Shown: positions 20,616 through 37,999 of the stretch, piece by piece
Numbering within the stretch: the stretch's first letter is position 1
Layout of the letters: every line of letters starts with the position of its first letter
Virus record (IMG/VR): IMGVR_UViG_3300037258_000514
Location: 64,001-128,000 of that record
Length of the DNA: 64,000 bases
DNA from: a virus
Strand: one strand, 5' to 3'
Made by a program: the position numbers and the translations under genes
The notes under the pieces: model-generated
What the model was told of the DNA's origin: nothing
The model's input: only the letters and a program-made list of their open reading frames with translations
Database searches by the model: none

Positions 20616-20690
20616 TGGTAGGCGTAGAGAGAATCGAACTCCCGTAGGACGGTAATCGGCCCGTCTGCTCTGCCCCTGAGCTATACGCCT
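20616..20690 (-). tRNA. tRNA-Ile(GAT), atypical anticodon loop
   Basis: cloverleaf; 8-nt loop GCCGATTA lacking U33/R37. Confidence 0.75.
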
Positions 20691-20924: not shown

Positions 20925-21001
20925 ATCTAGGTGCTCACCGCACCTAGACTTTGAACTTAAACATCCCCCAAGGCTTTTATACCTTTATGTTTAAGCTAAA
21001 A

Positions 21002-21962: not shown

Positions 21963-22579
21963 AAGTTTTTTGCTACTGCGATCCATTGTTGCGGATCGTT
22001 AAACATTTCTTTCCACTTAATACGCAAAACTTTCCAACCTTTGCTAATTAAGTAAGTATCTTTTCTCTGATCTCTTTCTTTAACTTCAATGTCTTCGTGT
22101 TGCTGGCCATCAATTTCAATTGCAAGCATTTTATTCTTCCAGGCGAAGTCAATTTTAAAAACTCCGGTCTGTAAGTTAAAATCATAATATTTATCTGTAA
22201 ATTCGTTTTCTATAACTTTCATGAAAAATTGTTCAGGATAAGATGGTTCGTTATTCCATTGACAAAATCCAATGTTATGTGCACGACCTTCGGCATGAGC
22301 CACTTTCATTTTTTCTGATAGTAGTTGTTTAGTTTCTTTTGTTTGAACTCTTCCTTGCCTGCCGCGTAATTTATTACTGCAACGTGCCGCGCTTAATGCT
22401 ACTCGAGGATCTTGTTTCGTTAATCCTTTATTCCAAGGAATGTTTCCTTTTGCTGATCCTGCTTTAAATGTTATTCCTGCCCCGTGCATTCTCCAGACGT
22501 GTGAAGCAAGTCCTCTTTCAGGTAATTCTTTTTCGCAATGATTGCATATTACTCGTGTTTTTGAAAGCGTATTATACAT
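21953..22579 (-). CDS. DUF559/Vsr-like homing endonuclease with C2H2 and NUMOD3-like segments
   Basis: CNHC...HVWRMH; PWNKGLTK; KIDFAW...AIEIDGQQH...GWKVLRI; stop lies inside tRNA-Asn. Confidence 0.8.
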   Translation of the reverse strand: MYNTLSKTRVICNHCEKELPERGLASHVWRMHGAGITFKAGSAKGNIPWNKGLTKQDPRVALSAARCSNKLRGRQGRVQTKETKQLLSEKMKVAHAEGRAHNIGFCQWNNEPSYPEQFFMKVIENEFTDKYYDFNLQTGVFKIDFAWKNKMLAIEIDGQQHEDIEVKERDQRKDTYLISKGWKVLRIKWKEMFNDPQQWIAVAKNFVG

Positions 22580-22585
22580 AAAAAC

Positions 22586-22698
22586 TTCTGCAACAGTTAT
22601 CCGCCTTTTACTAGCCACTAGTAGAACTATTGTATTGGAAGTCCGCGGTGCTCCCCTCATTCCTACTAGTGATAGCGAGCTATGAATCTGTTGCAGAA
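22586..22698 (-). ncRNA. putative structured spacer RNA
   Basis: terminal stem TTCTGCAACAG/CTGTTGCAGAA, inner CACTAGTAG/CTACTAGTG, AGCACCGCGGA loop. Confidence 0.55.
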
Positions 22699-22703
22699 AG
22701 TTG

Positions 22704-22946
22704 TTATTCGACTAAGCTAAAGTCGACGTAAAAGCGTTTCTTAGCGTGTAATGCATCCACAAAAATCTTAAATGCATCCGGATTTGTAATCATCATTTGT
22801 ATTGAGCCTGAAGGTGTCCATTTCGACCAATCTGTGTTGTCACCTTCTTTATCATTTCCGGCAGTTAGTTTAACGTTGCCTGAACCTTCCGGAGATTCAT
22901 ATAACTCAACGCCTGTTACTCTAAACTTCGCTCTTACTTGTGCCAT
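22704..22946 (-). CDS. conserved phage hypothetical protein
   Basis: VRAKF...WSKWTPSG.I.M.ITNP...FYVDF. Confidence 0.7.
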   Translation of the reverse strand: MAQVRAKFRVTGVELYESPEGSGNVKLTAGNDKEGDNTDWSKWTPSGSIQMMITNPDAFKIFVDALHAKKRFYVDFSLVE

Positions 22947-23013
22947 TTTATTTCTCGAAGCCGTATAGCTTTATCGGCTAAGAATTTTCTACGGTACTAC
23001 TCTCCGTAAGAAC

Positions 23014-23088
23014 TGGTTGCGGGGGTTGGATTTGCACCAACGTCTGCAGGTTATGAGCCTACCGTATGACCTACGCTACCACCCCGCG
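23014..23088 (-). tRNA. initiator-like tRNA-Met(CAT)
   Basis: C1:A72 mismatch, loop CT-CAT-AA, atypical T loop TGCAAAT. Confidence 0.8.
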
Positions 23089-23557
23089 TCAAACTAATCT
23101 TGTTCCCGCGTTTCCATCCAAGTTCGTAAAACGAATTAAGTTCTGTTAGCCGAACTAACATTGTCTTCTTTTCGCTAACGTTGTAAATCCATCTTTTCCC
23201 GAAGTTTGGGTTTTGTTCTCCTAGTCTCCCATGTAACTGACGAGCTTTTTCTAATCCATGTTTTTCAACAGTTGCTTGCCATAAATTTTTTGTGACTGCT
23301 CCACAAGCAATTGCATCTTGCCTGTTCTCTGATGGTGTTCCCCAATACAAATGAAACGGATTATTGCATTTCTCATTGTGACAGGCATGACAAGCTTGTA
23401 TCCTATGACCTTTTGGAACAGTTGTATTAAGTATGTGTGCAAGCAATCCTCTGCATTGCTCGGAATTACATCCACGTTCAACGCAGAACTCATTTAGTTT
23501 GAGATGAGATTGTCGCTCACTTTTTGTAAGCAAAATATAGTCTTCAATCTTAATCAT
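23051..23557 (-). CDS. His-Me-finger (HNH-type) homing endonuclease, MIxIExYIL family
   Basis: ACHACHNEKCNNPFHLYWGTPSEN; stop lies in the tRNA-Met anticodon loop. Confidence 0.8.
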   Translation of the reverse strand: MIKIEDYILLTKSERQSHLKLNEFCVERGCNSEQCRGLLAHILNTTVPKGHRIQACHACHNEKCNNPFHLYWGTPSENRQDAIACGAVTKNLWQATVEKHGLEKARQLHGRLGEQNPNFGKRWIYNVSEKKTMLVRLTELNSFYELGWKRGNKISLTRGGSVGHTVGS

Positions 23558-24057
23558 GCTCCATCCCTGCGTGATACAACTAAACTTTTGTTTTTCTTTG
23601 CTTCGTTTTTCTTAAACTGTTCTCTTATTGCATTTGCAATATGAGGCAGCGCTGAAAGATCACGTCGACATTCTTCCAAAGAATAGCCAGCTTTCGCTGC
23701 TGCTGCGTCTGCTGTAAAACCTTGTATGTAACAAGTAACAAAATGATGCTCTTTCTTGTTCAACTTCTTCTCTTTTATTTTTCGTTGTTTACCTATTGCT
23801 AAGCAATCATCTACAAATTTGTTAAACTCTCCTTCACGAATTCCGTTGATAAGAGCATCGTATTTCTTGTTCGCTTCTTCATTCATCGCAGCTTGACTAT
23901 CTAAGAAAAGTCTCTGAAGATGAGGGGCCAAAGAAAGATGAAGATCTCTAACAGTTATTTTTAAATTTTGTATTTCAGTAAGTACTTGATCGAGCTTTAC
24001 TTTTTTTGGCTTTGCTTTTGTCTTTTTCTTCATATGGTAAGCATTTATATATACCAA
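23554..24057 (-). CDS. hypothetical protein with terminase-small-subunit-like HTH at the C terminus
   Basis: LNKKEHHFVTCY......AAAKAGYS. Confidence 0.45.
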   Translation of the reverse strand: MVYINAYHMKKKTKAKPKKVKLDQVLTEIQNLKITVRDLHLSLAPHLQRLFLDSQAAMNEEANKKYDALINGIREGEFNKFVDDCLAIGKQRKIKEKKLNKKEHHFVTCYIQGFTADAAAAKAGYSLEECRRDLSALPHIANAIREQFKKNEAKKNKSLVVSRRDGA

Positions 24058-24063
24058 TTACTT

Positions 24064-24372
24064 GTGCCACGTATTCTGTTGACAGGGACGTGGCCTAACC
24101 CCGCTACTTAGCGAACTAAGCAGCAGCAGCTTGCGACATCCATGCGCCCTGAGGGATCATGAAAGGAGCAATCTGAGCAGTTTTGTCTGCATTTACAATT
24201 AGCTTCTCGTTACGGTGAGCAGCTATTTCCGGCGTCGCAAACAATCTACCTTACCTCCGTCGAATCTAATTCATCCCCGTAATTAGCGTCGAGAATGTTT
24301 AGTTGGTGGAGATGGCGGGGTACTGCCCCCCGCGTCCGTCGGTATAGCACATTGTTTGATATACGGCGCACT
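24064..24372 (-). ncRNA. ssrA: two-piece (circularly permuted) tmRNA
   Basis: acceptor piece ...GACGCGGGGGGCAGTACCCCGCCATCTCCACCA (ends 24304) precedes coding piece GGGGATGAATTAGATTCGAC (starts 24278); G3:U70; tag frame 24190-24116 ADKTAQIAPFMIPQGAWMSQAAAA*. Confidence 0.9.
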
Positions 24373-24375
24373 GTC

Positions 24376-24981
24376 TTAAAACTTTAATTTCCTACCTAAT
24401 TGCCAACCCTGTGTAAGATATAGTGCGGTTTCTTCTTTTGCAACAGCTTTTGACTTTTTCTCTTTTGTATTAAAGATCCAGTTTGTTCCAAATCTGTTAT
24501 TTTTGCTTCCCTGTTTTAACATACTCATTAATTCACACGAGCTTTGTTTATGTTTACTCCCCGTCCATTTTCTCTGACCGCGCAAGCTTGCACTCAATGC
24601 AAGTTGTCTGCGAACGTCTGTATTACTATCTAACCAGATACGTAATTTTACGTAAGCTCTTTTCCCTCCAAGAAGTCTATTAAATTTGTTTTGTTTCTCT
24701 ACCCACTCCCATCCGCCCATACCTCCGTTGTTAAGATTATAACATAACGGATTTTCTTTTTCTGCTTCAACAAGTCGAGCCTCGAGCGCAAACATATCTT
24801 CTGCATTGTCGAAATCTGCAAGCACTTCTTTACTAAAATTTACTATGCCATGCTTCTTTATTGCGTACCAGAAAAGTACTCCTGATCCTAAGTAACTATC
24901 ATCAGGCTTTTCTGTTTTATGCGCTCCGATGTAAAACTTGTTATTCACTTTACATGTCGTTTTATAAACTGTATAGTGCAT
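24376..24981 (-). CDS. GIY-YIG (Seg-like) homing endonuclease
   Basis: TVYKTT...FYIGAH...YLGSG...YNL..GG; directly upstream of tmRNA. Confidence 0.85.
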   Translation of the reverse strand: MHYTVYKTTCKVNNKFYIGAHKTEKPDDSYLGSGVLFWYAIKKHGIVNFSKEVLADFDNAEDMFALEARLVEAEKENPLCYNLNNGGMGGWEWVEKQNKFNRLLGGKRAYVKLRIWLDSNTDVRRQLALSASLRGQRKWTGSKHKQSSCELMSMLKQGSKNNRFGTNWIFNTKEKKSKAVAKEETALYLTQGWQLGRKLKF

Positions 24982-25001
24982 AGCAACAAACTTGTTTTAA
25001 A

Positions 25002-25121
25002 TACAGGTAGTCCCACGAACAAGTACTTCGCAAGATTTTAATCCGTTAGTACTCTCGCCTTACTACCTGCATTAGGGCGACCAATAAACCAGCCGCCTCC
25101 ACCATCCAGTCGGACCCTAAT
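25002..25121 (-). ncRNA. putative structured RNA (two long hairpins)
   Basis: ATTAGGG..CGAC/GTCG..CCCTAAT and GCAGGTAGT/ACTACCTGT stems. Confidence 0.45.
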
Positions 25122-25126
25122 ATACG

Positions 25127-25141
25127 CTAGGCCACTCCCCG
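25127..25141 (-). pseudogene. 5' fragment of a tRNA-Pro-like gene
   Basis: CGGGGAG-TGGCCTAG resembles a tRNA-Pro 5' end; no matching 3' half; Pro is the only amino acid missing from the array. Confidence 0.35.
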
Positions 25142-25543
25142 AAACTTTAATCTCCTGTTACTTCCTCTTCTTTTTTTTCGGGCTCTTTAAACTCTGGAGT
25201 AAACTGTGTTTCGTTGTGTTTTAGGTCTGCAATAATTGCAGGCGTTGCATCTGAGTGTTTTACGGGAAGCATTTTACCACACCGTATGCAAGGCGATCCG
25301 GGTTGTTGATCCGGGGCATCATGAGAGCAAGTATCAAGATCAGCCATAGTAATTCTCCTAGTTAAAACTACCACCAGTCCAGTTTTTAATGTAAAAAAGA
25401 ATTGACCTAAAAACTTTTGAAAGAAGAAAGTAATAAAGTAAATACATTACTACGCCATCGTAGAAATAAGCTGAGAGCAGTGCTGCTGTTATATCTGATG
25501 TTGTTCGTTCTAAGAACGTTAATTTTTCCATAGTAGTAAAAAA

Positions 25544-25619
25544 TGGTGGACACTCCCGGAATCGAACCGGATTTTCTAGCTCTTCAGGCAAGCACATTGA
25601 CCTTCAATGTTAAGTGTCC
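25544..25619 (-). tRNA. tRNA-Phe(GAA)
   Basis: cloverleaf, loop CT-GAA-GA, CCA. Confidence 0.85.
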
Positions 25620-25864
25620 ATTTAACTCGCTATAACTTCTTTGACTACATGTCCTATGTGAGCAATACCTTTCGGTACACCACATTCGTTGCACATCCCG
25701 TATTTCTCGGGAAGCGGCTTGTTTGGATTGCAACAGTCGTGTCCACAGCGTTTACAAAATGGACGTTGAAGTCCGTTGTATGTTCGACACTTACAACATC
25801 CCCATCCCGGTAATAGATCTCTTACGTCGAGTAGTAACTGACATTGTTCTGTGTTCATAAAATT

Positions 25865-25943
25865 TGGTGCCCTAGGTGGGATTCGAACCCACAAAATCTT
25901 CTGGGTCTAAGCCAGACGCCTTTTCCGATTTGACCACTAGGGC
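25865..25943 (-). tRNA. tRNA-Leu(TAG), short variable region
   Basis: cloverleaf, loop CT-TAG-AC, CCA. Confidence 0.85.
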
Positions 25944-26399
25944 CTCTTTACTATAAACTCCTTGTTTATGTAGGAGTTTAATAGAATCTGATATTTTTAG
26001 ACACTGTTCTTCAGGTTTTGGCTTTCCTTTATTACCACAACCATTCGTGTTTCCTCTGTGAGCTTGTCTTATTCGTGAAGCTTCTTCGCCATACTTTGCA
26101 ACTGTGTACTGCCAAACTGTTTTGTTATTTCGTCCGCTAGATATAGCATCCATTCTGTTTTCTCTAGGCGTACCCCAGTACACGTGAAATGGATTGCTAC
26201 ATTCTCCATTATGGCAAGCGTGACAAAGTTGAATTTTGTTTCCTCTTGGAATTGATGTATCCAAAATATAAGCTAGTAAGCCTTTTGAATAAACAGAAAC
26301 CCATCCCTCACCGCCACGATAAACACAAGGTTCATTAAGTTTTAAATGACGTTGTCTCTCGGCTTGGGATAGTAGAATATATTCTTCTATTCTAATCAT
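25872..26399 (-). CDS. His-Me-finger homing endonuclease, MIxIExYIL family
   Basis: LCHACHNGECSNPFHVYWGTPREN; frame reads through most of tRNA-Leu(TAG). Confidence 0.8.
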   Translation of the reverse strand: MIRIEEYILLSQAERQRHLKLNEPCVYRGGEGWVSVYSKGLLAYILDTSIPRGNKIQLCHACHNGECSNPFHVYWGTPRENRMDAISSGRNNKTVWQYTVAKYGEEASRIRQAHRGNTNGCGNKGKPKPEEQCLKISDSIKLLHKQGVYSKEALVVKSEKASGLDPEDFVGSNPT

Positions 26400-26405
26400 G
26401 CAGGC

Positions 26406-26434
26406 ATTATAAATTAATTTAACGTGTCTACCAA
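26406..26434 (-). promoter_or_regulatory. sigma70-like promoter giving a leaderless endonuclease mRNA
   Basis: TTGGTA-17 nt-TATAAT, ATG 6 nt downstream. Confidence 0.55.
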
Positions 26435-26442
26435 GCATAAAT

Positions 26443-26520
26443 TGGTGCGCAGAGGGAGATTTGAACTCCCAAACAACTGATTCTCAACCAGTTAGGTATG
26501 CCTGTTCCCTTCATCTGCGC
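26443..26520 (-). tRNA. tRNA-Leu(GAG), short variable region
   Basis: cloverleaf, loop TT-GAG-AA, CCA. Confidence 0.85.
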
Positions 26521-26526
26521 AAATTT

Positions 26527-26617
26527 GTTCGGTAAGGTGATTCATGCGCAACAAACCCTCTCTCAAAAGAAGAAAAGCGTGTGCAGGATCTCCCTGTACA
26601 ACACAGCCTTACCGAAT
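26527..26617 (-). ncRNA. putative structured spacer RNA
   Basis: terminal stem TTCGGTAAGG/CCTTACCGAA filling the Tyr-Leu spacer; inner hairpins. Confidence 0.5.
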
Positions 26618-26618
26618 A

Positions 26619-26705
26619 TGGTGCATTGGGTTGGACTCGAACCAACGTAGCCACTATGGGCAACTGGGTTACAGCCAGTCTGTTTTGCCGCTCACACACC
26701 AATGC
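26619..26705 (-). tRNA. tRNA-Tyr(GTA)
   Basis: cloverleaf with V arm, loop CT-GTA-AC, CCA. Confidence 0.9.
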
Positions 26706-26709
26706 GAAA

Positions 26710-26925
26710 CTACTTAAAAAGTTCTTCGTAAGCTTGTATCATCGTAGTATACTTATTCAGAGGATGTTCATCTGTCCACTCAACTTCACAAACTTCCGTT
26801 TTCATTACTTTCGGCATAATACAACGGTTTGGGTAGTGAGTGTTTTCTATTACGCTTTCTATTTCTTCTGGCGAAAGCTTATCATGATTAACAATGAGTA
26901 TTTCTACTTTGTATACTGTAGTCAT
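26710..26925 (-). CDS. hypothetical protein
   Basis: 71-aa ORF, ..VEWTDEHPLN motif. Confidence 0.55.
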   Translation of the reverse strand: MTTVYKVEILIVNHDKLSPEEIESVIENTHYPNRCIMPKVMKTEVCEVEWTDEHPLNKYTTMIQAYEELFK

Positions 26926-26929
26926 AATC

Positions 26930-27021
26930 TGGAAGAGGGTAACGGAATTGAACCGTCTGTCTGCAATAGCAGCGCAGGTCCTGGGTTCGAGCCAAGTTGC
27001 CCACCATGAGCACTACCCTCT
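26930..27021 (-). tRNA. atypical tRNA-Ser(CGA)
   Basis: AGAGGGT/ACCCTCT acceptor, compact D arm, loop CT-CGA-AC, long V arm, TCCA. Confidence 0.75.
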
Positions 27022-27109
27022 GGCGGTGAGAGCGAGAGTCGAACTCGCGCGTCCCTTGCGGGTACTCCTGCTTTCCAGACAGGTGCTTTTACCATTCAGC
27101 CATCTCACC
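27021..27109 (-). tRNA. tRNA-Ser(GGA)
   Basis: cloverleaf with V arm, loop CT-GGA-AA, GCCA. Confidence 0.9.
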
Positions 27110-27110
27110 T

Positions 27111-27659
27111 CTAAACTTGAGTATTTCTATCGCGTTTGTATTTTCCTTGCGCGTGTAATTCTTTAACAGCTGATGAGATCAACGCGTTCGTGCAACTAGC
27201 CCTTCCGCGCTGCCAATCAGGATAGTTGTTAATTTCTTCTTTTAAAATAAGTTTTTCACTTATTCCATTTGTAATCCAAATCTTTCCAAAAATAACTTGA
27301 CTTGCTTTTTGAATGTTTATCAAAGCATTTTGTCTTGCTAACGTTCGTGCTTTTTCTTCTCCATGTTTCGCTATTGATTTTTCCCAAATATTATGCTGGC
27401 TCCCGGCTTGTTTTGCGTCGTAAAAATTTTCGGTAGGCGTGCCCCAGTATAAGTGAAAAGGATTACTACATTTGTCATTATTACAAGCATGGCAAAGATA
27501 AATTGTATGTTTACTGGGAACTGTTGTATCAAGAATGTATGCGAGTAATCCTTTACACTCCGTTGAGTTACATCCTCTTTCTTCACACAGACTAGAAAGT
27601 TCAAGATGTGCCTGACGATCTACTTTTGTCTTTAAGATATACTCTTCTATTTTAATCAT
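27111..27659 (-). CDS. His-Me-finger homing endonuclease, MIxIExYIL family
   Basis: LCHACNNDKCSNPFHLYWGTPTEN; WITNG...WQRGR C-terminal module; ends 1 nt before tRNA-Ser(GGA). Confidence 0.8.
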   Translation of the reverse strand: MIKIEEYILKTKVDRQAHLELSSLCEERGCNSTECKGLLAYILDTTVPSKHTIYLCHACNNDKCSNPFHLYWGTPTENFYDAKQAGSQHNIWEKSIAKHGEEKARTLARQNALINIQKASQVIFGKIWITNGISEKLILKEEINNYPDWQRGRASCTNALISSAVKELHAQGKYKRDRNTQV

Positions 27660-27666
27660 AAGAAAT

Positions 27667-27761
27667 TGGAGGAGGGCCGGAGAGTTGAACTCCGTTATGC
27701 CAGGTGCTCTGACATTCGCCAGTTTTCAAAACTGGTGGCTGGACCGTGCGCCACGCCCTCC
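27667..27761 (-). tRNA. atypical tRNA-Ser(TGA)
   Basis: GGAGGGC/GCCCTCC, loop TT-TGA-AA, long V arm, unusual D arm, TCCA. Confidence 0.75.
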
Positions 27762-27938
27762 TAATATCGTGTACTAAACGTTAACTTTTTAATTTGTGCG
27801 CGTCTCATAATGTAGTTCTTTAAGAATGCAGCCTGACGAATTTTTCCTTCTTCAACGGCACGAATAGAAAAGTTGATCATTAGCTCAAAGAAACGTTCTT
27901 GCTGCTTGCGTAGTTCATTCAAACTAGGCATAAGATTA

Positions 27939-28029
27939 TGGCGGAGGGTACAGGATTTGAACCTGTGGAACGTTTATAGTTCACTTCTTTAGCAAAGAAG
28001 CGCGATAAGCCGGACTCTGCCAACCCTCC
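27939..28029 (-). tRNA. tRNA-Ser(GCT)
   Basis: cloverleaf with V arm, loop TT-GCT-AA, GCCA. Confidence 0.9.
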
Positions 28030-28196
28030 GAAAACTATAACGCACAGGCTGGACTGTGCCCGCCTGTGCGCTTCTTCCTTTTAGTTTACATTTTGCATTT
28101 CCTCTGTTTATCTTTAACATTTCTAAACAGTGTCAATAGTTTCATCTATATCATATATGATAAGATTTTTGTTGTTATACTCCCTGCATCTGCAAA

Positions 28197-28307
28197 TGCA
28201 ATGGTACTGGAATATAACTCTCATCCTAGGTGCTTGAGTCGGAATACTGAATAAAAACAGGTCCTATCTTATCGTTCGCCGTCCTAGGTGCTCCGGCGCG
28301 TACTGCA
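28197..28307 (-). ncRNA. putative structured RNA with two AGCACCTAGGA hairpins
   Basis: hairpins at 28220-28238 and 28277-28298 enclosed by TGCAGTAC/GTAC..TGCA. Confidence 0.5.
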
Positions 28308-28398
28308 ATCTTGATTGTATTTTTAAGTTTTATCTGTTATTCTGTAGATGTTTTTTCAAGTTTTCATTATTTTGGTCCCCCTACCTCATTTATACCAA

Positions 28399-28672
28399 TT
28401 ACCTGTTTACCTTCCAAATGTTTCTAGCTACTTCTGCTTTGTGCCAAGCTTTAAATGTCGGTGTTTCGATTAGCTTTAAGAAAGCCTCTTTGCGATTAAA
28501 GATGTTGGTCACGACCATCGCGGTGCTCGGCTCGTGCTCCAGAAGCTAGATGAATCAATCTAACTCCATTTTGTTTAGCGTTCCTGCGTTGTCCGCCCTT
28601 ACCACCTGTGCAGAACGTTTGAATTTCAAAATCGTTCTTTGTTACACTAAACAACAACACTTTATTTTCCAT
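28399..28672 (-). CDS. GGQ peptidyl-tRNA hydrolase / release-factor-like protein (ArfB/RF-1 domain) split by a +1 frameshift
   Basis: AAGGAG RBS; MENKVLLFSVTKNDFEIQTFCTGGKGGQRRNAKQNGVRLIHLASGARAEHRDGRDQHL, then CTT-TAA; the +1 frame continues NRKEAFLKL... Confidence 0.75.
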
Positions 28673-28689
28673 GTTGTTCTCCTTGAAAC

Positions 28690-28767
28690 TGGTAGGCGCG
28701 GAGGGATTCGAACCCCCAATTGATGCTGCTTTTGAGGCAACCGCTTTGCCAAGTTAGCTACGTGCGG
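28690..28767 (-). tRNA. tRNA-Leu(CAA) with mismatched acceptor stem (possible pseudo-tRNA)
   Basis: loop CT-CAA-AA; T arm and ACCA intact; 5' CCGCACG vs 3' CGCGCCT gives three mismatches. Confidence 0.7.
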
Positions 28768-29345
28768 ACAAAAAGTTTAGTAGTTCTTCCTTTTTCCCAT
28801 CCTTCTGATATGAAAAGAAGTATTTTGTTTTGTTTAATTTTAATCTCTTTTCCTTCTTTTCGTATCCAGCAAGTTCCAAACTGCGAGTTCCTCTCTGCAA
28901 TTTTCCTTGCATCAGTTAATGCTTCTTTAGCACGTACTTTGTTTTGCTCTTCTTTGTTATTTAATCTTTGTTGATTAATACTAGAAATGTTTTTTCTACC
29001 ACTAGAAGCTTGTATTTCCTTTGCTTTTTCTAAACCGTGTTTTTCGACCATCTTTTGCCATAAAGATTTATAATTACTACTGCAAATGTAATCAGCAGTA
29101 TTTTCTTTTCTTGTTCCCCAATACAAATGAAAAGGATTACTACACTTTCCATTGTTACATGCATGACATGCTTCTACGTTAATCTTATACGGAAGAGAAG
29201 TGTTTAGTATATAAGATAACGTTCCTCGCATTGCATATGAAACTAATGCAGAATTCCCTCCACGTTCTACGCATTGTTCATCTAATCTTAAATGCTTTTT
29301 CCGTTGTTCTAACGGAAGCAAGATATAGTCCTCAATTCGAATCAT
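28758..29345 (-). CDS. His-Me-finger homing endonuclease, MIxIExYIL family
   Basis: ACHACNNGKCSNPFHLYWGTRKEN; NSQFGTCWI...GWEKGR; stop lies inside tRNA-Leu(CAA). Confidence 0.8.
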   Translation of the reverse strand: MIRIEDYILLPLEQRKKHLRLDEQCVERGGNSALVSYAMRGTLSYILNTSLPYKINVEACHACNNGKCSNPFHLYWGTRKENTADYICSSNYKSLWQKMVEKHGLEKAKEIQASSGRKNISSINQQRLNNKEEQNKVRAKEALTDARKIAERNSQFGTCWIRKEGKEIKIKQNKILLFISEGWEKGRTTKLFVRT

Positions 29346-29352
29346 ATGGCAA

Positions 29353-29382
29353 ATTATAATTTGTAGTTGATTCAAAAATCAA
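29353..29382 (-). promoter_or_regulatory. sigma70-like promoter, leaderless endonuclease mRNA
   Basis: TTGATT-18 nt-TATAAT, ATG 7 nt downstream. Confidence 0.5.
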
Positions 29383-29393
29383 GCAATGAAAAT

Positions 29394-29479
29394 TGGTAGG
29401 CCCTATCGGAGTTGAACCGATACTCCCGAAGGAAACGAGGCTTAAACTCGTTGCGTCTGCCGGATTCCGCCAAAGGCCC
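29394..29479 (-). tRNA. tRNA-Leu(TAA)
   Basis: cloverleaf with V arm, loop TT-TAA-GC, CCA. Confidence 0.9.
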
Positions 29480-29489
29480 GTAAAAGAAT

Positions 29490-29677
29490 TCAGAGAAGAA
29501 GGCTGTCATTAGTGACAGTAAAGAAGATTATCATCAATCTGTTTCTCTACTTAACCTAAGCGCGAAGCGCATCTATCACCTTGATCGGCCTCTCCACGAT
29601 CCTTCGGACTCAGCAATAGAGAACTTGCTACACCTAAATGCAATCCGCGGTGCTTTGCTAGTGTACATCTTCTCTGA
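29490..29677 (-). ncRNA. putative ~190-nt multibranch RNA
   Basis: terminal stem TCAGAGAAGA/TCTTCTCTGA; several inner hairpins including an AGCACCGCGGA loop. Confidence 0.55.
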
Positions 29678-29688
29678 TACTTAAAAAT

Positions 29689-29763
29689 TGGTGGAGGGTA
29701 GGAGAGTCGAACTCCTGATACTTGGTTGCAGGCCAAGTGTGTTCCCGCTAGCACTAACCCCCC
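29689..29763 (-). tRNA. tRNA-Ala(TGC)
   Basis: G3:U70, TGC anticodon, CCA. Confidence 0.9.
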
Positions 29764-29765
29764 AG

Positions 29766-29843
29766 ATACCGCTCGCGTCCGAAACGTTTTGCCTAGGAGA
29801 GTTCCAAACAACAGGCGGTATTCATCCACGGAGCGACCGTGAA
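29766..29843 (-). ncRNA. putative structured spacer RNA
   Basis: ATACCGC/GCGGTAT and TGTTTGGAAC/GTTTCGGACG stems, CCTAGG in the loop. Confidence 0.4.
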
Positions 29844-29848
29844 ACTTA

Positions 29849-30610
29849 CTAATTAATTTTATGGGGCGGCAGATGGGAGTCAGACCCACTAAAAGATGCT
29901 CCACAGGCATCTGCCGCATCGTTTGGCTTCTGCCGCCGTAGCTTGATTTCTCTTCTTTCTAATAATCCGTTAAGAGATCCAAAGTTTGGTGTTAAAGAAT
30001 GACAACTCGGACAAAGTATTTTTACATTACTTCGTCTATTATTTGTTCTATCACCATCTACATGGTGAAACTCTGTTGGGATATTTCCCGTAGTAGGATG
30101 AATTCGCATCCAGCCACATTCTTCACAACTATTTCCGCGAAGTTCTATTAAAGCTCTCTGAGCGAAGTATTCAGTTAGATTATTTTCTCCTGCAAACCAT
30201 CTTTCCTTATCTAACTGCCATTTATGCGCTATCCTACATTTTCCGCTGCAATACTCATTTAAGCCTGTTTTACCACAGAACGTACAAAGCCTTCTTGGAA
30301 TTTTTATTCTTCCGATGTTATTAACTATCCCGGCGCAAGTTTTACTACAATATAATAATCCGTTTGGGCCAACAAAGTTAAAACATTCTGCGCGTTGGCA
30401 CTTTACTCTTTGTTTATTCTTTGTTCTAAGTAAAGCATTTTCTTTGTTAACTTGAACCGCTTTCTCTCGCCCTTTGTTCCAGCGTTCTTTTGCTTCTAAC
30501 GAAAGAACTTCGTGATAGGGTTTGCCTCCGACTTGTATACAGTAAGTTTTGTGCCTATTTAATCCACGAATGTCTTTGCATTCCTTACCACATATACAAT
30601 GAACAATCAT
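29849..30610 (-). CDS. HNH homing endonuclease with zinc-ribbon repeats
   Basis: CEECG...EFHHVDGDRTNNRRSNVKILCPSCHS; YCS..C repeats; frame spans the whole tRNA-His. Confidence 0.85.
   Translation of the reverse strand: MIVHCICGKECKDIRGLNRHKTYCIQVGGKPYHEVLSLEAKERWNKGREKAVQVNKENALLRTKNKQRVKCQRAECFNFVGPNGLLYCSKTCAGIVNNIGRIKIPRRLCTFCGKTGLNEYCSGKCRIAHKWQLDKERWFAGENNLTEYFAQRALIELRGNSCEECGWMRIHPTTGNIPTEFHHVDGDRTNNRRSNVKILCPSCHSLTPNFGSLNGLLERREIKLRRQKPNDAADACGASFSGSDSHLPPHKIN
29862..29937 (-). tRNA. tRNA-His(GTG), atypical D and T loops
   Basis: G-1:C73, loop CT-GTG-GA, T loop TCTGACT, CCA. Confidence 0.8.
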
Positions 30611-30621
30611 ACACTGTTATA

Positions 30622-30653
30622 CCAAGCGCCTAAACCATTCGGCCAACGTCACC
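30622..30653 (-). pseudogene. 5' half of a canonical tRNA-His-like gene, truncated at the anticodon loop
   Basis: G-GTGACGT-TG-GCCGAATGGTTTAGGC-G-CTTGG, then sequence switches to TATAAC and the HNH start. Confidence 0.65.
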
Positions 30654-30867
30654 ATAAAACTTAAACTAATCTTCTCCGCGAATTTTTACGAGAGTCCTTT
30701 TTCTTAATTCAGGTAATGAATCTATCTTCTGAGCAAGGGCAAGAAGTTGGGATTCAATTCTACATGCTTCCCTATAAACTTCTTTCTCTTCAGGATTGTC
30801 TTGATTTGCTGCAAAAACTATCTTTGCAACTTCACGCGATATTGCCTCTGCTAAATTAATCATAACT

Positions 30868-30943
30868 TGGAGCCACCGGTGGGACTCGAACCCACGATTG
30901 ACAGTTTACAAAACTGTTGCTGTCGCCACTGAGCCACGGTGAC
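30868..30943 (-). tRNA. tRNA-Thr(TGT)
   Basis: cloverleaf, loop TT-TGT-AA. Confidence 0.9.
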
Positions 30944-30950
30944 TTAAAAT

Positions 30951-31024
30951 TGGAGCCGCCATCGGGAATCGAACCCGAGTAGATTGCTTACCAAGCAATT
31001 GAACTGCCACTGTTCTATAGCGAC
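30951..31024 (-). tRNA. tRNA-Thr(GGT)
   Basis: cloverleaf, loop TT-GGT-AA. Confidence 0.9.
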
Positions 31025-31064
31025 TTACTTACCACATTACCTTCTCAGCCGTCCTTTAGGAAAA

Positions 31065-31138
31065 TGGAGCCGGCAACAGGAATCGAACCTGTGTAGGTAG
31101 TTTACGAAACTACTGAACTGCCACTGTTCTATACCGAC
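31065..31138 (-). tRNA. tRNA-Thr(CGT)
   Basis: cloverleaf, loop TT-CGT-AA. Confidence 0.9.
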
Positions 31139-31342
31139 GTTTATGTATTACTAGGTCTTACTATCCTGGCGTTGATTCTATCCCTACTAAATCTTTCCAG
31201 GATATCCCAAAATACAGCATCAGGAACTTTCCTGTATTCTGATGTAACCATACCAAGGAAGAAGACCATTTCCGCTTCAGTCCACTCAACCAAACTAGCT
31301 GTTAGTATATGGCAGTCGTAAGTTGTTCTTGGCATAAACTTA

Positions 31343-31533
31343 ATCGCGTCCTACTACTGTCATCGCTCGGCTACGTAGTAAGTAAAGAGGACAAAGCGAT
31401 AAAAGACCCTCACCGCGAAATCTTTACAAGGTTTCTACTCCGTTACAGGTAGCCTACCTCCACGACAGTTGCTATGAGCAAGGTTGAGTTCTCTGTAACT
31501 TAGGCTCAACGGGCGGCTCGGATTTGAACCGAG
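31343..31533 (-). ncRNA. structured non-coding stretch beginning with an orphan T arm
   Basis: CTCGG-TTCAAAT-CCGAG-CCGCCCG at 31533-31510, followed by several hairpins. Confidence 0.4.
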
Positions 31534-31543
31534 AAGTGTAATT

Positions 31544-31620
31544 TGGAGCACGGAACCGGAATCGAACCGGTGTATTGGCAGCTTTGCAGGCTGTCGCCTT
31601 ACCGTCTTGGCTATCCGTGC
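31544..31620 (-). tRNA. tRNA-Cys(GCA)
   Basis: cloverleaf, loop CT-GCA-AA, TCCA. Confidence 0.9.
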
Positions 31621-31726
31621 AAATTGTGCGGCAGAAGTAAACTAAATTACTTCTTCAACACTTTTACCAGTAGTTAATCCGACTGCGGGCGCTTAATAAT
31701 AACCCAATCATTGAGCCGCAAACTTC

Positions 31727-31778
31727 CGGGGTCTATCCTACTGCTGTCCTAGGTTCTCAGCGATTCGGTAAGACCCCG
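31727..31778 (-). ncRNA. small structured RNA with AGAACCTAGGA loop
   Basis: CGGGGTCT/AGACCCCG terminal stem, GCTG/CAGC inner stem. Confidence 0.5.
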
Positions 31779-31795
31779 TTTTTGTGTAATATCTA

Positions 31796-31895
31796 TTGTC
31801 GGGAACAAGCGCTAACAGTTAGCGGTATCGAAACCGCAATTGGCTTACGAGGCCAATTTTTATCCAAGAAGTAGCTGTTAACTACGCCACGACAA
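31796..31895 (-). ncRNA. Yrl-like Y RNA copy 1 (inside the tRNA array)
   Basis: TTGTC-GTGGCG...CTACTTC...CGCTTGTTCCC-GACAA scaffold. Confidence 0.75.
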
Positions 31896-31901
31896 AGAAA
31901 A

Positions 31902-31976
31902 TGGAGCGGGTAAAGGAACTCGAATCCTTGTGTCTTGGGTGGAAACCAAGCATACTAGCCGCTGTATGATACCCGC
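31902..31976 (-). tRNA. tRNA-Gly(TCC)
   Basis: cloverleaf, loop TT-TCC-AC, TCCA. Confidence 0.9.
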
Positions 31977-32033
31977 TTAAAATTTTATTTTCCTTCCCAT
32001 CAACCATCCTATTAACCAACCCCGCCTTAAAAC

Positions 32034-32255
32034 TTATCGCAAGAAGCTTGTAGGACTCATTGCTGCATACTTTAGCAAGAATGAAAGCAATCCTACCCAA
32101 AACATGTGCAAGCCAATTACATTGCATTTCATGTTAAGATCTGATGGTGGAGGTGTTGTTGGTCTGGCTGTGATTAAAAACATTACCAAACCAAGTAAAC
32201 ACACTAAAAGTGAAAGATAAATTTGCATTGTTGATCTCCTTTTATATTCGTCCAA
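32034..32255 (-). CDS. small membrane protein
   Basis: two hydrophobic helices; likely start MQIYL after AAGGAG. Confidence 0.55.
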   Translation of the reverse strand: MDEYKRRSTMQIYLSLLVCLLGLVMFLITARPTTPPPSDLNMKCNVIGLHMFWVGLLSFLLKYAAMSPTSFLR

Positions 32256-32394
32256 GCAAGAATAAGATCAGAACAATAATAAAAATTGTTCCTAATAGTC
32301 CTGATGGAGCGTAACCCCAGTTTTGACTGTGAGGCCATGATGGGAAAGCGCCAACGAGCAGTAAGATTAAAACGATTAGCAAGATTAAGCCCAT
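32242..32394 (-). CDS. DUF3309-family small membrane protein
   Basis: MGLILLIVLILLLVGAFPSWPHSQNWGYAPSGLLG...LLGRI (50 aa, below the ORF-track cutoff). Confidence 0.85.
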   Translation of the reverse strand: MGLILLIVLILLLVGAFPSWPHSQNWGYAPSGLLGTIFIIVLILFLLGRI

Positions 32395-32507
32395 AGTTGT
32401 CACCTCGCTTGATCGTAATATAAACCTAAGCCAGAAATCTGTTCAGTTTTATACACTTCGTACTCTTTGATGCTGTTTGGGAGAAAAACGTTTGATACAA
32501 AATTAAA

Positions 32508-32582
32508 TGGCAGGGGATCCGAGACTCGAACTCGGGTAAACGGTTTTGGAGACCGACGTAATGGCCGCTATACGAATCCCCT
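32508..32582 (-). tRNA. tRNA-Trp(CCA)
   Basis: cloverleaf, loop CT-CCA-AA, GCCA. Confidence 0.9.
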
Positions 32583-32587
32583 AAATT

Positions 32588-32719
32588 TATTCTGAGAGGC
32601 GCCAAAGCCTTGTCCGTTGTAGAATGCTCGTAACGACTAGGGGTTGCGCAGTCCCGTTCCGATAGTTTATACTGACACATTCTTGGTCAACCACTCGCCA
32701 CCTACCACCTCTCAGAATA
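32588..32719 (-). ncRNA. putative rod-like structured RNA
   Basis: TATTCTGAGAGG/CCTCTCAGAATA terminal stem; AGAATG/CATTCT inner stem; fills the Asp-Trp spacer. Confidence 0.55.
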
Positions 32720-32720
32720 T

Positions 32721-32797
32721 TGGCGGGCCGTACGGGATTCGAACCCGTGAATGTACGGTAGACAGCCGTATAGCTTAGACCGCTTGCCTAACGACCC
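32721..32797 (-). tRNA. tRNA-Asp(GTC)
   Basis: cloverleaf, loop CT-GTC-TA, GCCA. Confidence 0.85.
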
Positions 32798-32826
32798 CAA
32801 TATTACTCTATTCAGTTGTCAAAGAA

Positions 32827-33486
32827 TTACAACACCGCCGCCTGAACGGCTTGATGAGAATGCGTCTCTTTCTCATCGTTGAACTTTCGGCACTTACTAC
32901 ACCAAATTAGTTTATACCCAAATTTATAAAGACGATTTCCTACTGCAACGGCACTAACGCCCAACTTTTCTCCTACATATGTGTAGGAAGAATTCTTAAC
33001 CATTGTTACAAGCTCGTTAATCTCAGGCCATTCAATCTTCGTTCTTAACCGTAAACGAGCATGAATCTTATTATAAACGCCTTCAGTATGAAGCCTTTTA
33101 GTACGTAACGAAGCCTCTTGACGCGCTTTAACACTAGTAATTCTACACTTTCTCAACTGCATTGCTTTTTCTTCGCCATATTTAGCTATTGTATATAACC
33201 AAATATTTTTCTTTCCATTTGCTATAGCATCTGCAGTATTTTCTGCTGCAGTACCCCAATACAGATGATAAGGATTACTGCACTTCTCATTGTGACAGGC
33301 ATGACAGCAATGAATTTTTACTTCAAAAGGGATTGTAGTATCAACTATATATGCTAGTAGACCTCTACATTCACCTGAACTGCCTTCCTTTGGATTTCCT
33401 CCTCTTTCTACGCAAGGTGAGTCAAGTTTTAAATGAGATTGCCTTTCTTTCTTTGGACGTAGAATATATTCTTCTATATTAATCAT
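32827..33486 (-). CDS. His-Me-finger homing endonuclease, MIxIExYIL family, HTH-like C terminus
   Basis: CCHACHNEKCSNPYHLYWGTAAEN; KIEWP...SY..VG.KLGVS..AV. Confidence 0.8.
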   Translation of the reverse strand: MINIEEYILRPKKERQSHLKLDSPCVERGGNPKEGSSGECRGLLAYIVDTTIPFEVKIHCCHACHNEKCSNPYHLYWGTAAENTADAIANGKKNIWLYTIAKYGEEKAMQLRKCRITSVKARQEASLRTKRLHTEGVYNKIHARLRLRTKIEWPEINELVTMVKNSSYTYVGEKLGVSAVAVGNRLYKFGYKLIWCSKCRKFNDEKETHSHQAVQAAVL

Positions 33487-33520
33487 AAATACTTCAAGCC
33501 CCTGAGGGCGTCACAAACTT

Positions 33521-33597
33521 TGGCTGGCCACCCAGGATTCGAACCTGGAATCTTCGCGTTCAGAGCGCGCTGCGTTCGCCGGTTGCGCCAGTGGCCA
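33521..33597 (-). tRNA. tRNA-Gln(CTG)
   Basis: cloverleaf, loop CT-CTG-AA, GCCA. Confidence 0.9.
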
Positions 33598-33811
33598 ATT
33601 TACTAAACAAAATCTACTACGTTGTTATTTATACCGCCCTGCGGCGGTGCTGGATTCGTCTGTTCAACATTTGTATTCACAGGATTATCAACTCCCGGTA
33701 CAGGAAGTCCGTAAGGATTAATGTACGAAGTTCCTGTGTTTTGGTAGTACCATCCGAAGTTATTAAATCCCGGTGATGACATTAACGTCTCCTAAATGGC
33801 AGTTCTAATTT

Positions 33812-33887
33812 TGGTAGCCCGAGCAGGACTCGAACCTGCGCTATTCTGCTCCAAAGGCAGACGTCTTGGCCGCTAAACGATCGGGCT
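33812..33887 (-). tRNA. tRNA-Gln(TTG)
   Basis: cloverleaf, loop CT-TTG-GA, ACCA. Confidence 0.85.
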
Positions 33888-34505
33888 ATTAACTTTCTCT
33901 AACTTCTTTCCGGCATACATTCGTTGAATTTTTCCCAACTTCCAACCCTGTATTGTTGCTAGTGCTATAAGATTCTTTTCGATTCTAATATTCTTGTCTT
34001 CTTTGTTCATCCAAACTGTATCCGTAGCTTGGTTTCTACTTCCAACGCAAAGCTTACGTCCATTTGAAATCTTTGCTTTTAGTTCAGATGAAACTATGAA
34101 ACTAGGATGAAAACCTTCACGTCCTTCTTTCCAACCAAGAGTAACAAAAAGTTCTTTGTCATAAAGACAAATTAATCGTGTTAAGCCGTTGTAAGACATC
34201 CAAACTTTATCGGCTGTATTGCGTTTATCTCCGAAATTATTTGTGTATCCGTTTTCTACAGCATCAACACGATTATCTGTCGGTGTTCCCCAGTATAGAT
34301 GAACTTTGTTACTACATTTTTCATTGTGACACGCGTGACATAAGTAAATTTTATATCCCTTTGGGATAGAAGTGTTTAAGTAGTCAGCTAACATGCCTTT
34401 AAACTCAACTGAAAATCCCCCGCGTTCAATGCAGGGATCGTGCAATTTTAAATGAGAGCGTCTTTGCTCTCTTGACAACAAAATGTACTCTTCTATTTTT
34501 ATCAT
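33873..34505 (-). CDS. His-Me-finger homing endonuclease, MIxIExYIL family
   Basis: LCHACHNEKCSNKVHLYWGTPTDN; two W...GWK.G modules; stop lies inside tRNA-Gln(TTG). Confidence 0.8.
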   Translation of the reverse strand: MIKIEEYILLSREQRRSHLKLHDPCIERGGFSVEFKGMLADYLNTSIPKGYKIYLCHACHNEKCSNKVHLYWGTPTDNRVDAVENGYTNNFGDKRNTADKVWMSYNGLTRLICLYDKELFVTLGWKEGREGFHPSFIVSSELKAKISNGRKLCVGSRNQATDTVWMNKEDKNIRIEKNLIALATIQGWKLGKIQRMYAGKKLEKVNSPIV

Positions 34506-34694
34506 ACTTCCAATGCTATAGCTTGTCCGCAGCGCATACATAAAACAAAACTTGAATCTACATCAAATCCAGCATTTTGTCTTGCCACACGCGCCTCATT
34601 CCTAAGAATGATATGATCATCACCGCTTCTTGTGCAAACTCGCTCTGTTGTTATCTCTGCTTTGTGTCCAAGTACATTAATTGTCGGCATAAAC

Positions 34695-34769
34695 TGGTGG
34701 GGCTAACGGGAATCGAACCCGTATTTAAGCTGTGAAAGAGCTTTTACCTGACCGTTAGTAGATAGCCCC
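34695..34769 (-). tRNA. tRNA-Glu(TTC)
   Basis: cloverleaf, loop CT-TTC-AC, CCA. Confidence 0.9.
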
Positions 34770-34970
34770 TAAAAATCTTTACAACTTGAAATTGTGTTTT
34801 GAGTAGTTCTACAGCTCTTTTGTTTTTTGGCTTGTAAGCCACGCCGTCTGTGTATGAGCGTTATTCCCGTCAATCACCTGACAGCTCGGAGACGATGGGG
34901 TTGGTCTAAAACCGCGTTCACGTAAATATCGCGATATGACCATAACGGTCTCCCTTTGATTAGCTATTAA

Positions 34971-35000
34971 AGCCTATAATAATAGGCTAATTAATGTCAA
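34971..35000 (-). promoter_or_regulatory. sigma70-like promoter at the head of the tRNA array
   Basis: AAAGAAATGC-TTGACA-18 nt-TAGGCT; same upstream context as the promoter at 61927. Confidence 0.55.
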
Positions 35001-35019
35001 GCATTTCTTTTAAAAAATT

Positions 35020-35180
35020 TTATGTGTAGGCTTCAAACGTATCCGGTCCTAGGTGCTCCGAATAGTTTCCTTCTGATGAGAACTTCTTCGTATTACTTTA
35101 TTGGTAACACGGGCCACAGCTAACTCCCGTCTCATCCTCCCGTGGACAGACATCCCGTCTCTCGATGCCACTACACATAA
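35020..35180 (-). ncRNA. putative ~160-nt multibranch RNA with AGCACCTAGGA loop
   Basis: TTATGTGTAG/CTACACATAA terminal stem; TATTCGG/CCGGATA hairpin. Confidence 0.55.
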
Positions 35181-35994: not shown

Positions 35995-37332
35995 TTATTG
36001 AATCTTCTCTAGTTCACGAATGAAATTGATGCAAGCTTCACTCCATCCGTCAATGTGTGTCCACTCTCTGTAACCAAGGCCGTTCTTGTTAGAAGCAACG
36101 TTAATTACATACCCTTTACCTTTGGGTGAAGCAATCCCATCGTGGGCTTGTTCATCAGTGAACACAATGATACGATCATAGCCTTCTCTTGAATTAATGT
36201 GCTGTAAAGCTCGTTCAAGATAAGTTGAACCGTGGGGCAAGCTGTTTACGATCGCATCACGTAGAGCAAATCCTCTACGAGCAGGTACTAGCACGCATTG
36301 AGAGCTGAATGTGTAGACAACACAATCAGAACAAATTTCACGCGCTAGCATTGCCACTCCACAGGCAGCATCCATTCTAGTGATCTCAGACTTTCCTGAG
36401 ATTTGCGCTTCCATTGAACCGGATACGTCTATTAATAGAATAGTCTTACCTGTAAGCTTTTCCTGCTCCTTGAGACACTTCATCATACCTGCTTCAAGTT
36501 CTTGCTCAAGTTTCGGAGCATAACGAGCAGCGGCGATGAAGCGGAACGGAAGTACGCGTTCGGTCTTGATGTTTAGCAACGCCTTACGAATATTGGAAAT
36601 GTCGACTCCTGCTTCTTGCATGTTACGCAAGTTGCGAAGGAGAGCCAAAGCGCCCAGCTGATTTTCTGCGAGCTTTGATTCCCATACTGCTTTCTTCTGT
36701 TCCTCTGTCTTCTTTTCCTCTCCTGCCGACAAGGCTACTTCCCAAGTCGAAGCAGGCGGGAGAGTTCCATTAACTAACTGTTTCCAAACTGCTTCTTGCT
36801 CTTCGTCTTTCGGCTTTGCGTGCGACAGGAACAAAACATCACGAAGCTTTACTGCATTGTCTTGGTTGTACTTCGCCAAGTCATAGGCAGAAAACTTATT
36901 GAAAGCCTTTGCAAGACCTTTTTTCACTTGAGCAGAAAGTGTTTTCTTTCCCGGTTGATCTGCCCAGTAGAGTGCAAGGAACTCTGCAAGTTCATCAGCA
37001 CGTTGAATTACACGTGCAAGTGTGTCAGCAACGAGACTACCATCAACATCTTTTCTCTTTGCCAACGAACGGACAAGGAAAAGAGGCATGTGACGAAGCT
37101 TCTGTTGTTCGCGACATTCGATTGCCAACTGTGCAACTTTGTTGGAATCAACATGCTTTGCCGCTTCGAGAACTTGCTCAGAGATCGTCTTACCATCAAC
37201 ATAAAACTGATCTTCAAATAACATCGTTGCAAGAGTTAAACGACGAAGCTGAAGTTCAGGCGAAATCTGAACCGCCTTTGCTCCTTCGTGTGTAAAAATT
37301 GGGTTGGATAGTACGGCTGTGTTTGTACGCAT
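35995..37332 (-). CDS. rsr: Ro60 / TROVE + vWA Y-RNA-binding protein
   Basis: THEGAKA, LFEDQFY, IQRADEL, LAKYN...VKLRDVLFLSHAKP, TWEVALS, ALLRNLRN, LPFRF, DVSGSM MIDAS, FTDEQ. Confidence 0.95.
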   Translation of the reverse strand: MRTNTAVLSNPIFTHEGAKAVQISPELQLRRLTLATMLFEDQFYVDGKTISEQVLEAAKHVDSNKVAQLAIECREQQKLRHMPLFLVRSLAKRKDVDGSLVADTLARVIQRADELAEFLALYWADQPGKKTLSAQVKKGLAKAFNKFSAYDLAKYNQDNAVKLRDVLFLSHAKPKDEEQEAVWKQLVNGTLPPASTWEVALSAGEEKKTEEQKKAVWESKLAENQLGALALLRNLRNMQEAGVDISNIRKALLNIKTERVLPFRFIAAARYAPKLEQELEAGMMKCLKEQEKLTGKTILLIDVSGSMEAQISGKSEITRMDAACGVAMLAREICSDCVVYTFSSQCVLVPARRGFALRDAIVNSLPHGSTYLERALQHINSREGYDRIIVFTDEQAHDGIASPKGKGYVINVASNKNGLGYREWTHIDGWSEACINFIRELEKIQ

Positions 37333-37373: not shown

Positions 37374-37474
37374 CTACCGGGAACACTCGAGCAACGTAGC
37401 GTTTTAAAGTCCGCAACGACCCACATGGTATGAGGTTATTAGCCTCGAAGTAATGCTACTCTACGCCACGGCAG
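37374..37474 (-). ncRNA. Yrl-like Y RNA copy 2
   Basis: CTGCC-GTGGCG...TTACTTC...CGAGTGTTCCC-GGTAG. Confidence 0.8.
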
Positions 37475-37478
37475 TTAG

Positions 37479-37814: not shown

Positions 37815-37841
37815 TCTATCCCTCTCAGGAGTTTTAAAAAA

Positions 37842-37993: not shown

Positions 37994-37999
37994 ATTCTA

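Follow-up and report, generated by a model that had tools for sequence, protein, structure and literature searches.

Why would a phage repeat one short loop sequence at the tips of otherwise unrelated hairpins between its tRNA genes? We addressed this question in a stretch of 64,000 nucleotides (nt), positions 64,001 to 128,000 of IMG/VR record IMGVR_UViG_3300037258_000514 (hereafter the window, whose numbering is used throughout). The record is a single viral contig of 175,952 base pairs (bp) from a soil-metagenome assembly and represents an uncultured phage, which is T4-like in having both rIIA and rIIB (top rIIA match to a Phaeobacter phage, 31% identity). Between ~17 and 35 kb, the minus strand of the window holds 30 or more tRNA genes in which the CCA is encoded, and a first-pass annotation had picked out six copies of an 11-nt loop in this region and suggested that they are either kissing loops or mimics of the sarcin-ricin loop. 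The hairpin family is real and statistically solid. We tentatively favor its interpretation as symmetric kissing loops in two orthogonal classes, with CCUAGG at the core of four copies and CCGCGG at the core of two.

The pattern AGMACCKMGGA matches the window exactly six times, on the minus (tRNA-coding) strand only: AGCACCGCGGA at 22642–22652 and 29644–29654, AGCACCTAGGA at 28224–28234, 28282–28292 and 35047–35057, and AGAACCTAGGA at 31747–31757. Shuffled windows contained it 0.18 times on average and never more than once, and this count bears out the number, positions and strand of the copies as annotated; we refer to them as sites 1 to 6 in order of position. A regular-expression scan of the whole 175,952-bp genome recovered AGNACCNNGGA at the six sites only, plus a single AGCACCAAGGA; this seventh copy, antisense to a 156-aa open frame, is not flanked by a stem. 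CCTAGG and CCGCGG also occur elsewhere in the genome, but without the flanks of the motif. All six sites fall between tRNA genes or open reading frames (ORFs), with site 1 overlapping only the upstream extension of an ORF, and in an anchored alignment of the six copies conservation stops at the 11-base loop.

Read as RNA, four loops are AGMA-CCUAGG-A (UA class) and two are AGCA-CCGCGG-A (GC class), so that each holds a 6-nt palindrome. Nine of the 11 loop positions are invariant, and the only two neighboring positions that vary do so together, UA becoming GC with the palindrome kept, just as had been claimed. The accompanying claim, that every copy sits in the loop of a stem of different sequence in non-coding DNA, was also upheld: five copies are flanked directly by 4–7 contiguous bp and site 3 by 5 bp with one bulged G. 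At least 4 bp surround an 11-nt segment at 2.1% of window positions, and against this background stems at five or more of six sites correspond to P = 2.6e-8. Other palindrome classes in AGNA...A flanks had stems no more often than expected by chance. Because the loop is constant and the stems are unrelated but always paired, selection appears to act on a displayed single-stranded RNA sequence. The strand bias, the asymmetric flanks and the 4-bp stems point in turn to RNA rather than duplex DNA.

All six structures lie on the minus strand, and those of the GC class are sites 1 and 4. At site 1 (22638–22656), a stem GGGG/CUUC with two G-U pairs carries the loop AGCACCGCGGA (22642–22652) at the tip of a long irregular hairpin of ~105 nt (22590–22694; minimum free energy −32.7 kcal/mol, z −2.85), which lies just past the stop of an 80-aa ORF and is followed by a U-run and an in-frame ATG at 22579. 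A DUF559/Vsr-like nuclease ORF is listed from an ATG at 22658–22660 (minus strand), within the hairpin. The zinc finger of the nuclease, however, begins right behind the second in-frame ATG (22577–22579), past both hairpin and U-run, and site 1 is therefore probably part of a leader RNA of the nuclease gene, the translation of which its structure may control. At site 4 (29640–29658) the same loop (29644–29654) closes a stem GCAA/UUGC and caps a longer hairpin of 70 nt (29612–29681) in the 209-nt spacer between tRNA-Ala and tRNA-Leu.

The UA class comprises sites 2, 3, 5 and 6. Sites 3 and 2 share one spacer and have identical loops 58 nt apart: site 2 (28220–28238) has a stem CUCA/UGAG with loop AGCACCUAGGA (28224–28234), and site 3 (28277–28298) a stem CGCCG/CGGCG, containing the bulged G, with loop AGCACCUAGGA (28282–28292). 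Site 5, a variant of the class, caps a 52-nt hairpin GGGGUCU...AGACCCC (31727–31778) through an apical stem GCUG/CAGC with loop AGAACCUAGGA (31747–31757). It lies directly 3′ of a Y-RNA-like scaffold (31796–31900), in the 281-nt spacer between tRNA-Gly and tRNA-Cys, the whole of which folds with z −4.29. Site 6 (35028–35071) combines a 7-bp stem UAUUCGG/CCGGAUA with loop AGCACCUAGGA (35047–35057) and is found beyond the ORF following the Ro60 gene, with a promoter-like TTGACA box ~45 nt farther downstream, at 35000. Such boxes follow sites 6 and 2 only, by 45 and 90 nt respectively, and the other four sites have none.

What could a loop of this kind contact? Taken alone, the minimal hairpins are predicted to be only marginally stable (+1.7 to −2.1 kcal/mol), which makes a stabilizing partner plausible, and the predicted unpaired probability of the hexamers is 0.64–0.96 versus a regional background of 0.41 ± 0.22. 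Candidate local pseudoknot partners for the loops amounted to 4-nt matches only. Self-duplexes computed with ViennaRNA reach −8.0 kcal/mol for CCUAGG and −10.7 kcal/mol for CCGCGG, versus −1.6 kcal/mol across classes. Because the two adjacent bases that vary cannot pair with each other within one chain, and because their double change keeps the palindrome, a symmetric contact between two copies is suggested. The even number of copies in each class, the position of sites 1, 4 and 5 at the tips of long arms and the confinement of the motif to the sense strand of non-coding tRNA-array spacers are further features that we take to support kissing.

On this model, the six elements would be RNA hairpins in tRNA-array transcripts, each exposing a self-complementary hexamer at its tip, and a loop would pair over six bases with a same-class loop of another RNA molecule or, at sites 3 and 2, possibly within one spacer RNA. 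The central two bases would define two mutually exclusive pairing classes, and the contact would stabilize the short, weak stems together with the conserved unpaired purines around the hexamer. The likely result would be that spacer RNAs freed by tRNA processing are held as defined dimers or small assemblies, one of them joined to a Y-RNA-like module. The pattern, its hairpin context, its bias in strand and position, the palindromes and the computed energies are shown here; from them we infer the existence of the RNAs as such, the pairing of their loops and what that pairing achieves. A further step, in which orthogonal loop sets wire tRNA-array spacer RNAs into RNA-only assemblies to which the Y-RNA-like module could bring Ro60, is speculative and we consider it doubtful.

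The kissing-loop proposal fits everything computed and is the best available reading, although it hangs on one palindrome-preserving change, UA to GC. Several observations weigh against it. That change happened once only, and taken by itself its chance is ~0.2–0.33. The four conserved 5′ bases (AGMA) exceed what a kissing loop needs, which suggests that something else, for instance a protein, reads the loop as well or instead. A search of sequencing runs placed the stretch in its source soil metagenome only, with no RNA run listed. Lastly, no homologous loop was found in any of the relatives examined.

A scan of the window from 16000 to 37000 with cmscan (Rfam 15, E up to 1) returned tRNAs, a transfer-messenger RNA (tmRNA) and CyVA-1 only, none overlapping any site. 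We also built a covariance model of the hairpins (25 positions), to which the six sites score 24–30 bits and everything else in the window and the relatives searched ≤15 bits. Related hairpins, for which the first-pass annotation had proposed an Infernal search, were absent beyond the six sites from the loci and records scanned: there was no model match better than E 0.1 in seven IMG/VR Ro60 loci (L001–L007) and five whole viral records with Ro60 proteins of 44–56% identity, and no model match in nine metagenome loci (L011–L019) with Ro60 proteins 72–73% identical to that of the window. Comparison of the region with 50,697 phage records by megablast and blastn gave tRNA-gene matches or nothing, and neighboring ORFs used as queries gave no relative, or one in an unrelated context. 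One of the IMG/VR loci, L007, contains repeats of its own upstream of its tRNA array (2200–5200, plus strand), which are spaced by 15 nt, form small hairpins and include TGGTGCCAACCTG three times and GTGCTGATTTA three times.

Exact pattern searches led to the same result. Scans of IMG/VR viral contigs with 14-mers gave 20 matches for GGAGCACCTAGGAC and 112 for GGAGCACCGCGGAC, and those examined were single copies throughout; of the five UA-pattern matches inspected, all but one (L020) had a flanking stem, and each match with such a stem lay inside a long open frame. A two-copy pattern run against 241 million metagenome records gave 39 matches, all of them tandem or coding repeats. One of the nine metagenome loci, L015, is a Logan contig of 10,233 bp that is syntenic with the window over its positions 5471–10233. 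Downstream of Ro60 its tRNA genes follow the order of the window (Glu, Glu, Gln, Gln, Asp, Trp, Gly, Gly, Cys, three Thr, Ala, Leu), in a compact array without nearly all of the homing-endonuclease genes of the window. The motif does not occur in its Ala-Leu, Gly-Cys and Ro60-Glu spacers, which, judged by eye only, did not look alignable with those of the window. Given no Rfam match and no copy in any relative examined, the motif is lineage-specific and without comparative support; so far it is known from one uncultured phage genome and is a member of no named family. The annotation's remark that the motif is undescribed is borne out within the bounds of Rfam 15 and the collections we scanned.

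Among other explanations, the strongest is that each hairpin is a site for a loop-specific phage or host protein, with the palindrome either incidental or read by a dimeric protein bridging two loops; we regard this as possible, if on balance unlikely. Such a protein could serve the processing, stability, antitermination or translational control of tRNA-array transcripts. It would account for the invariance of nine of 11 loop positions, including the non-palindromic AGMA and the final A, over stems that are free to vary, and for an apical stem of near-constant 4 bp, which suggests a fixed geometry. Lineage-specificity would also be expected of sites that co-evolve with the phage's own protein, as nut/boxB-type sites do, and the setting is suitable, with two sites closing transcription units just ahead of promoter-like boxes and site 1 in a nuclease leader. 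We recognized no candidate RNA-binding protein adjoining the sites, however, and a 6-nt palindrome occurs in only ~9% of random 11-mers, yet the sole variable pair keeps it. A separate reading, in which the hairpins are a sponge displaying (A)NGGA to a GGA-reading global regulator of the CsrA/RsmA type, is highly improbable. GGA ends all six loops, UAGGA appears in four, and two of the several copies lie 58 nt from each other; from work on CsrB and RsmZ, a CsrA dimer can bridge sites at about that distance. But here GGA stands at the 3′ edge of an unusually large 11-nt loop, the two GC-class loops read GCGGA and so lack the preferred A, and the conserved AGCACC goes unexplained. The alpha-type tmRNA of the phage also hints at a group of hosts that seldom have CsrA.

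The palindromic core would also suit the two-fold symmetry of a protein bound to DNA, and the motif could then be a site for a dimeric protein or nuclease reading CCNNGG, or the scars or ends of mobile cassettes brought in by homing endonucleases. In favor of a role in DNA, the array's His-Me, HNH, GIY-YIG-like and Vsr-like genes are nearly all missing from the syntenic L015, as is the motif. Yet the six copies share one orientation and have asymmetric flanks, the center of the palindrome lies 1.5 nt off the dyad of the stem, 4-bp stems are meaningless in duplex DNA, other genomic CCTAGG and CCGCGG sites lack the flanks, and there is no one-to-one relation with nuclease genes; a DNA-level role is therefore improbable. 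Least credible of all is the annotation's second proposal, a sarcin-ricin loop mimic acting as a decoy for ribotoxins or elongation factors. It drew on a loose likeness of AGCACCUAGGA to AGUACGAGAGGA and on the copy at 35047, which continues CCGGA as rRNA does. The continuation is correct, but it is merely the 3′ strand of that hairpin's own stem and not a likeness to rRNA. The defining features are missing: the U of the bulged-G triple is replaced (five copies have C, the sixth has A), there is neither a GAGA tetraloop nor the C-G pair that would close it, with CCUAG or CCGCG in their place, and the loop is one base shorter. The UA/GC change would be meaningless in such a model, and no rRNA or other Rfam model matched at the sites.

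Symmetric kissing loops, the reading we prefer, have precedents. The dimerization initiation site (DIS) loop of HIV-1, AA-GCGCGC-A or AA-GUGCAC-A, is a 6-nt palindrome flanked by unpaired purines, with two natural palindrome variants that do not cross-pair; it is a 9-nt loop present once per genome and has a role in genome packaging. The hairpins described here resemble it in the palindrome with unpaired purine flanks, in having two variants predicted not to cross-pair and in similar duplex energies, but their loops are 11 nt long and are unrelated to the DIS in sequence and biology. Closer in setting are GOLLD and ROOL, which are encoded beside phage tRNA islands (Kretsch et al. 2025, PMC12286853). 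Symmetric kissing loops have been described for GOLLD (L21a/L21b), ROOL (L18) and OLE (L9.3), and palindrome-switching variants were read as intermolecular contacts, which was structurally confirmed for OLE L9.3 and GOLLD L21a (PMC12286853). Like the present hairpins, these RNAs have apical loops with a self-complementary core, and GOLLD and ROOL also adjoin phage tRNA genes. Their loops, however, belong to large (400–800 nt), widely conserved RNAs with many other contacts, whereas the present family consists of six very small hairpins spread over five spacers of a single genome, without a shared larger architecture, and is known from sequence alone. If they do pair, the assemblies would be a miniature form of the RNA–RNA quaternary contacts that GOLLD, ROOL and similar RNAs of phage tRNA islands make.

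Two other known systems share parts of this context. Promoter-early stem-loop (PeSL) cassettes of T4-type phages (PMC2839356, PMC4122927) are likewise short repeated stem-loops in variable T4-like regions near promoters, and two of our sites lie 45–90 nt before TTGACA. In PeSLs the stem and the early promoter are conserved and the loop is variable (PMC4122927); the present hairpins conserve the loop only, the reverse of this arrangement, and we set the identity aside since the stems are unrelated and TTGACA follows sites 6 and 2 only. Bacterial and phage Y RNAs, including YrlA (Chen et al. 2014, PMC4201824), offer a parallel in the combination of a Ro60 gene with small structured RNAs among phage tRNA genes, and site 5 abuts a Y-RNA-like scaffold. 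The hairpins nevertheless differ from Y RNAs in lacking tRNA-like T and D arms, and the Y-like scaffolds are conserved in the syntenic L015, unlike the hairpins. An identity with Y RNA or YrlA was dropped, as the scaffold pattern is not found in the hairpins and no exact GNCGAAN0-1G was seen in the contexts of sites 4–6, those inspected.

Further identities were tried and discarded. The loop superficially recalls a tRNA D arm or hidden tRNA (A, G...GG, A) but has no base for position 20; neither ARAGORN nor the Rfam tRNA model reports anything at the six sites, and the D loops of the phage's tRNAs are different. Mimicry of the 16S 530 loop was rejected because AGCAGCCGCGGUAA resembles the GC class only and UA-class loops lose the intraloop pairs. 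T-loops, tetraloop receptors and K-turns were dropped by inspection, and RegB-type sites because GGAG is absent. The motif has no one-to-one link with homing-endonuclease genes. A Y-RNA loop as partner of the GC class was also excluded: CCGCGG at 38001–38006 is a basal stem strand of a Y-like RNA.

Two more minus-strand hairpins contain fragments related to the loops. One, at 20926–20954, is a perfect 8-bp hairpin, CUAGGUGC-GGUGA-GCACCUAG, that stops two bases short of tRNA-Val; a truncated loop motif (AGCACCUAG) makes up the 3′ arm, to which the 5′ arm is exactly complementary. The other, CUUGUAC-CUAGGU-GUACAAG at 20574–20593, carries a loop of 6 nt that is complementary to ACCUAG in loops of the UA class, and with its flanks forms an 8-nt match, CCUAGGUG versus CACCUAGG, at a chance level of ~0.15. 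It is only a possible partner of UA-class loops.

The surrounding array is rich in other structured RNAs and genes. Directly upstream of it lies the Ro60 gene, with TROVE and vWA domains (35995–37332, minus strand). A UGGCG...UACUUC...UUCCC scaffold occurs at six places, within 37447–39215 (minus strand) and at 31868–31889 (minus strand), none of them in the hairpins, and we consider the UGGCG...UACUUC scaffolds near Ro60 to be candidate Y RNAs; the Y-like word GUGGCG is kept in relatives, five times in L015 and four times in L016. Within the array, two Rfam matches exceed their gathering scores: a permuted (two-piece) alpha-type tmRNA (24065–24420, minus strand, 77.8 bits) and a CyVA-1 RNA (31343–31419, minus strand, 53.1 bits). 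The region is also dense in homing-endonuclease genes of the His-Me, HNH, GIY-YIG-like and DUF559/Vsr-like types.

Among its tRNA genes, two matches to the Rfam tRNA model, at 28693–28767 and 23021–23085 (both minus strand; 39.3 and 37 bits), are uncalled by ARAGORN, which does call, at 20616–20690, a tRNA whose anticodon loop (cgat) has 8 nt. Finally, a 58-codon ORF with a GGKGGQ motif of the release-factor/ArfB type (28399–28672, minus strand) terminates in CAU CUU UAA; the next helix of the domain (NRKEAFLKL...) is found in the +1 frame, an arrangement that resembles the CUU-UGA programmed frameshift of RF2.

Phage tRNA islands are emerging as rich in structured RNAs, some of which self-assemble through kissing loops. 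Both the kissing-loop and the protein-site reading of the present hairpins draw on one metagenomic genome. If a protein reads the loops, the hairpins would mark an unknown regulator of tRNA-array expression. If instead they form two exclusive pairing classes, very small spacer RNAs would also use programmable loop–loop contacts, in what would be a minimal, modular counterpart of the contacts that build GOLLD and ROOL nanocages and the first addressable kissing loops organizing by-products of tRNA processing. They would then provide a simple, synthesizable system of 19–50 nt for loop–loop contacts, and a link to Ro60 and Y RNAs.

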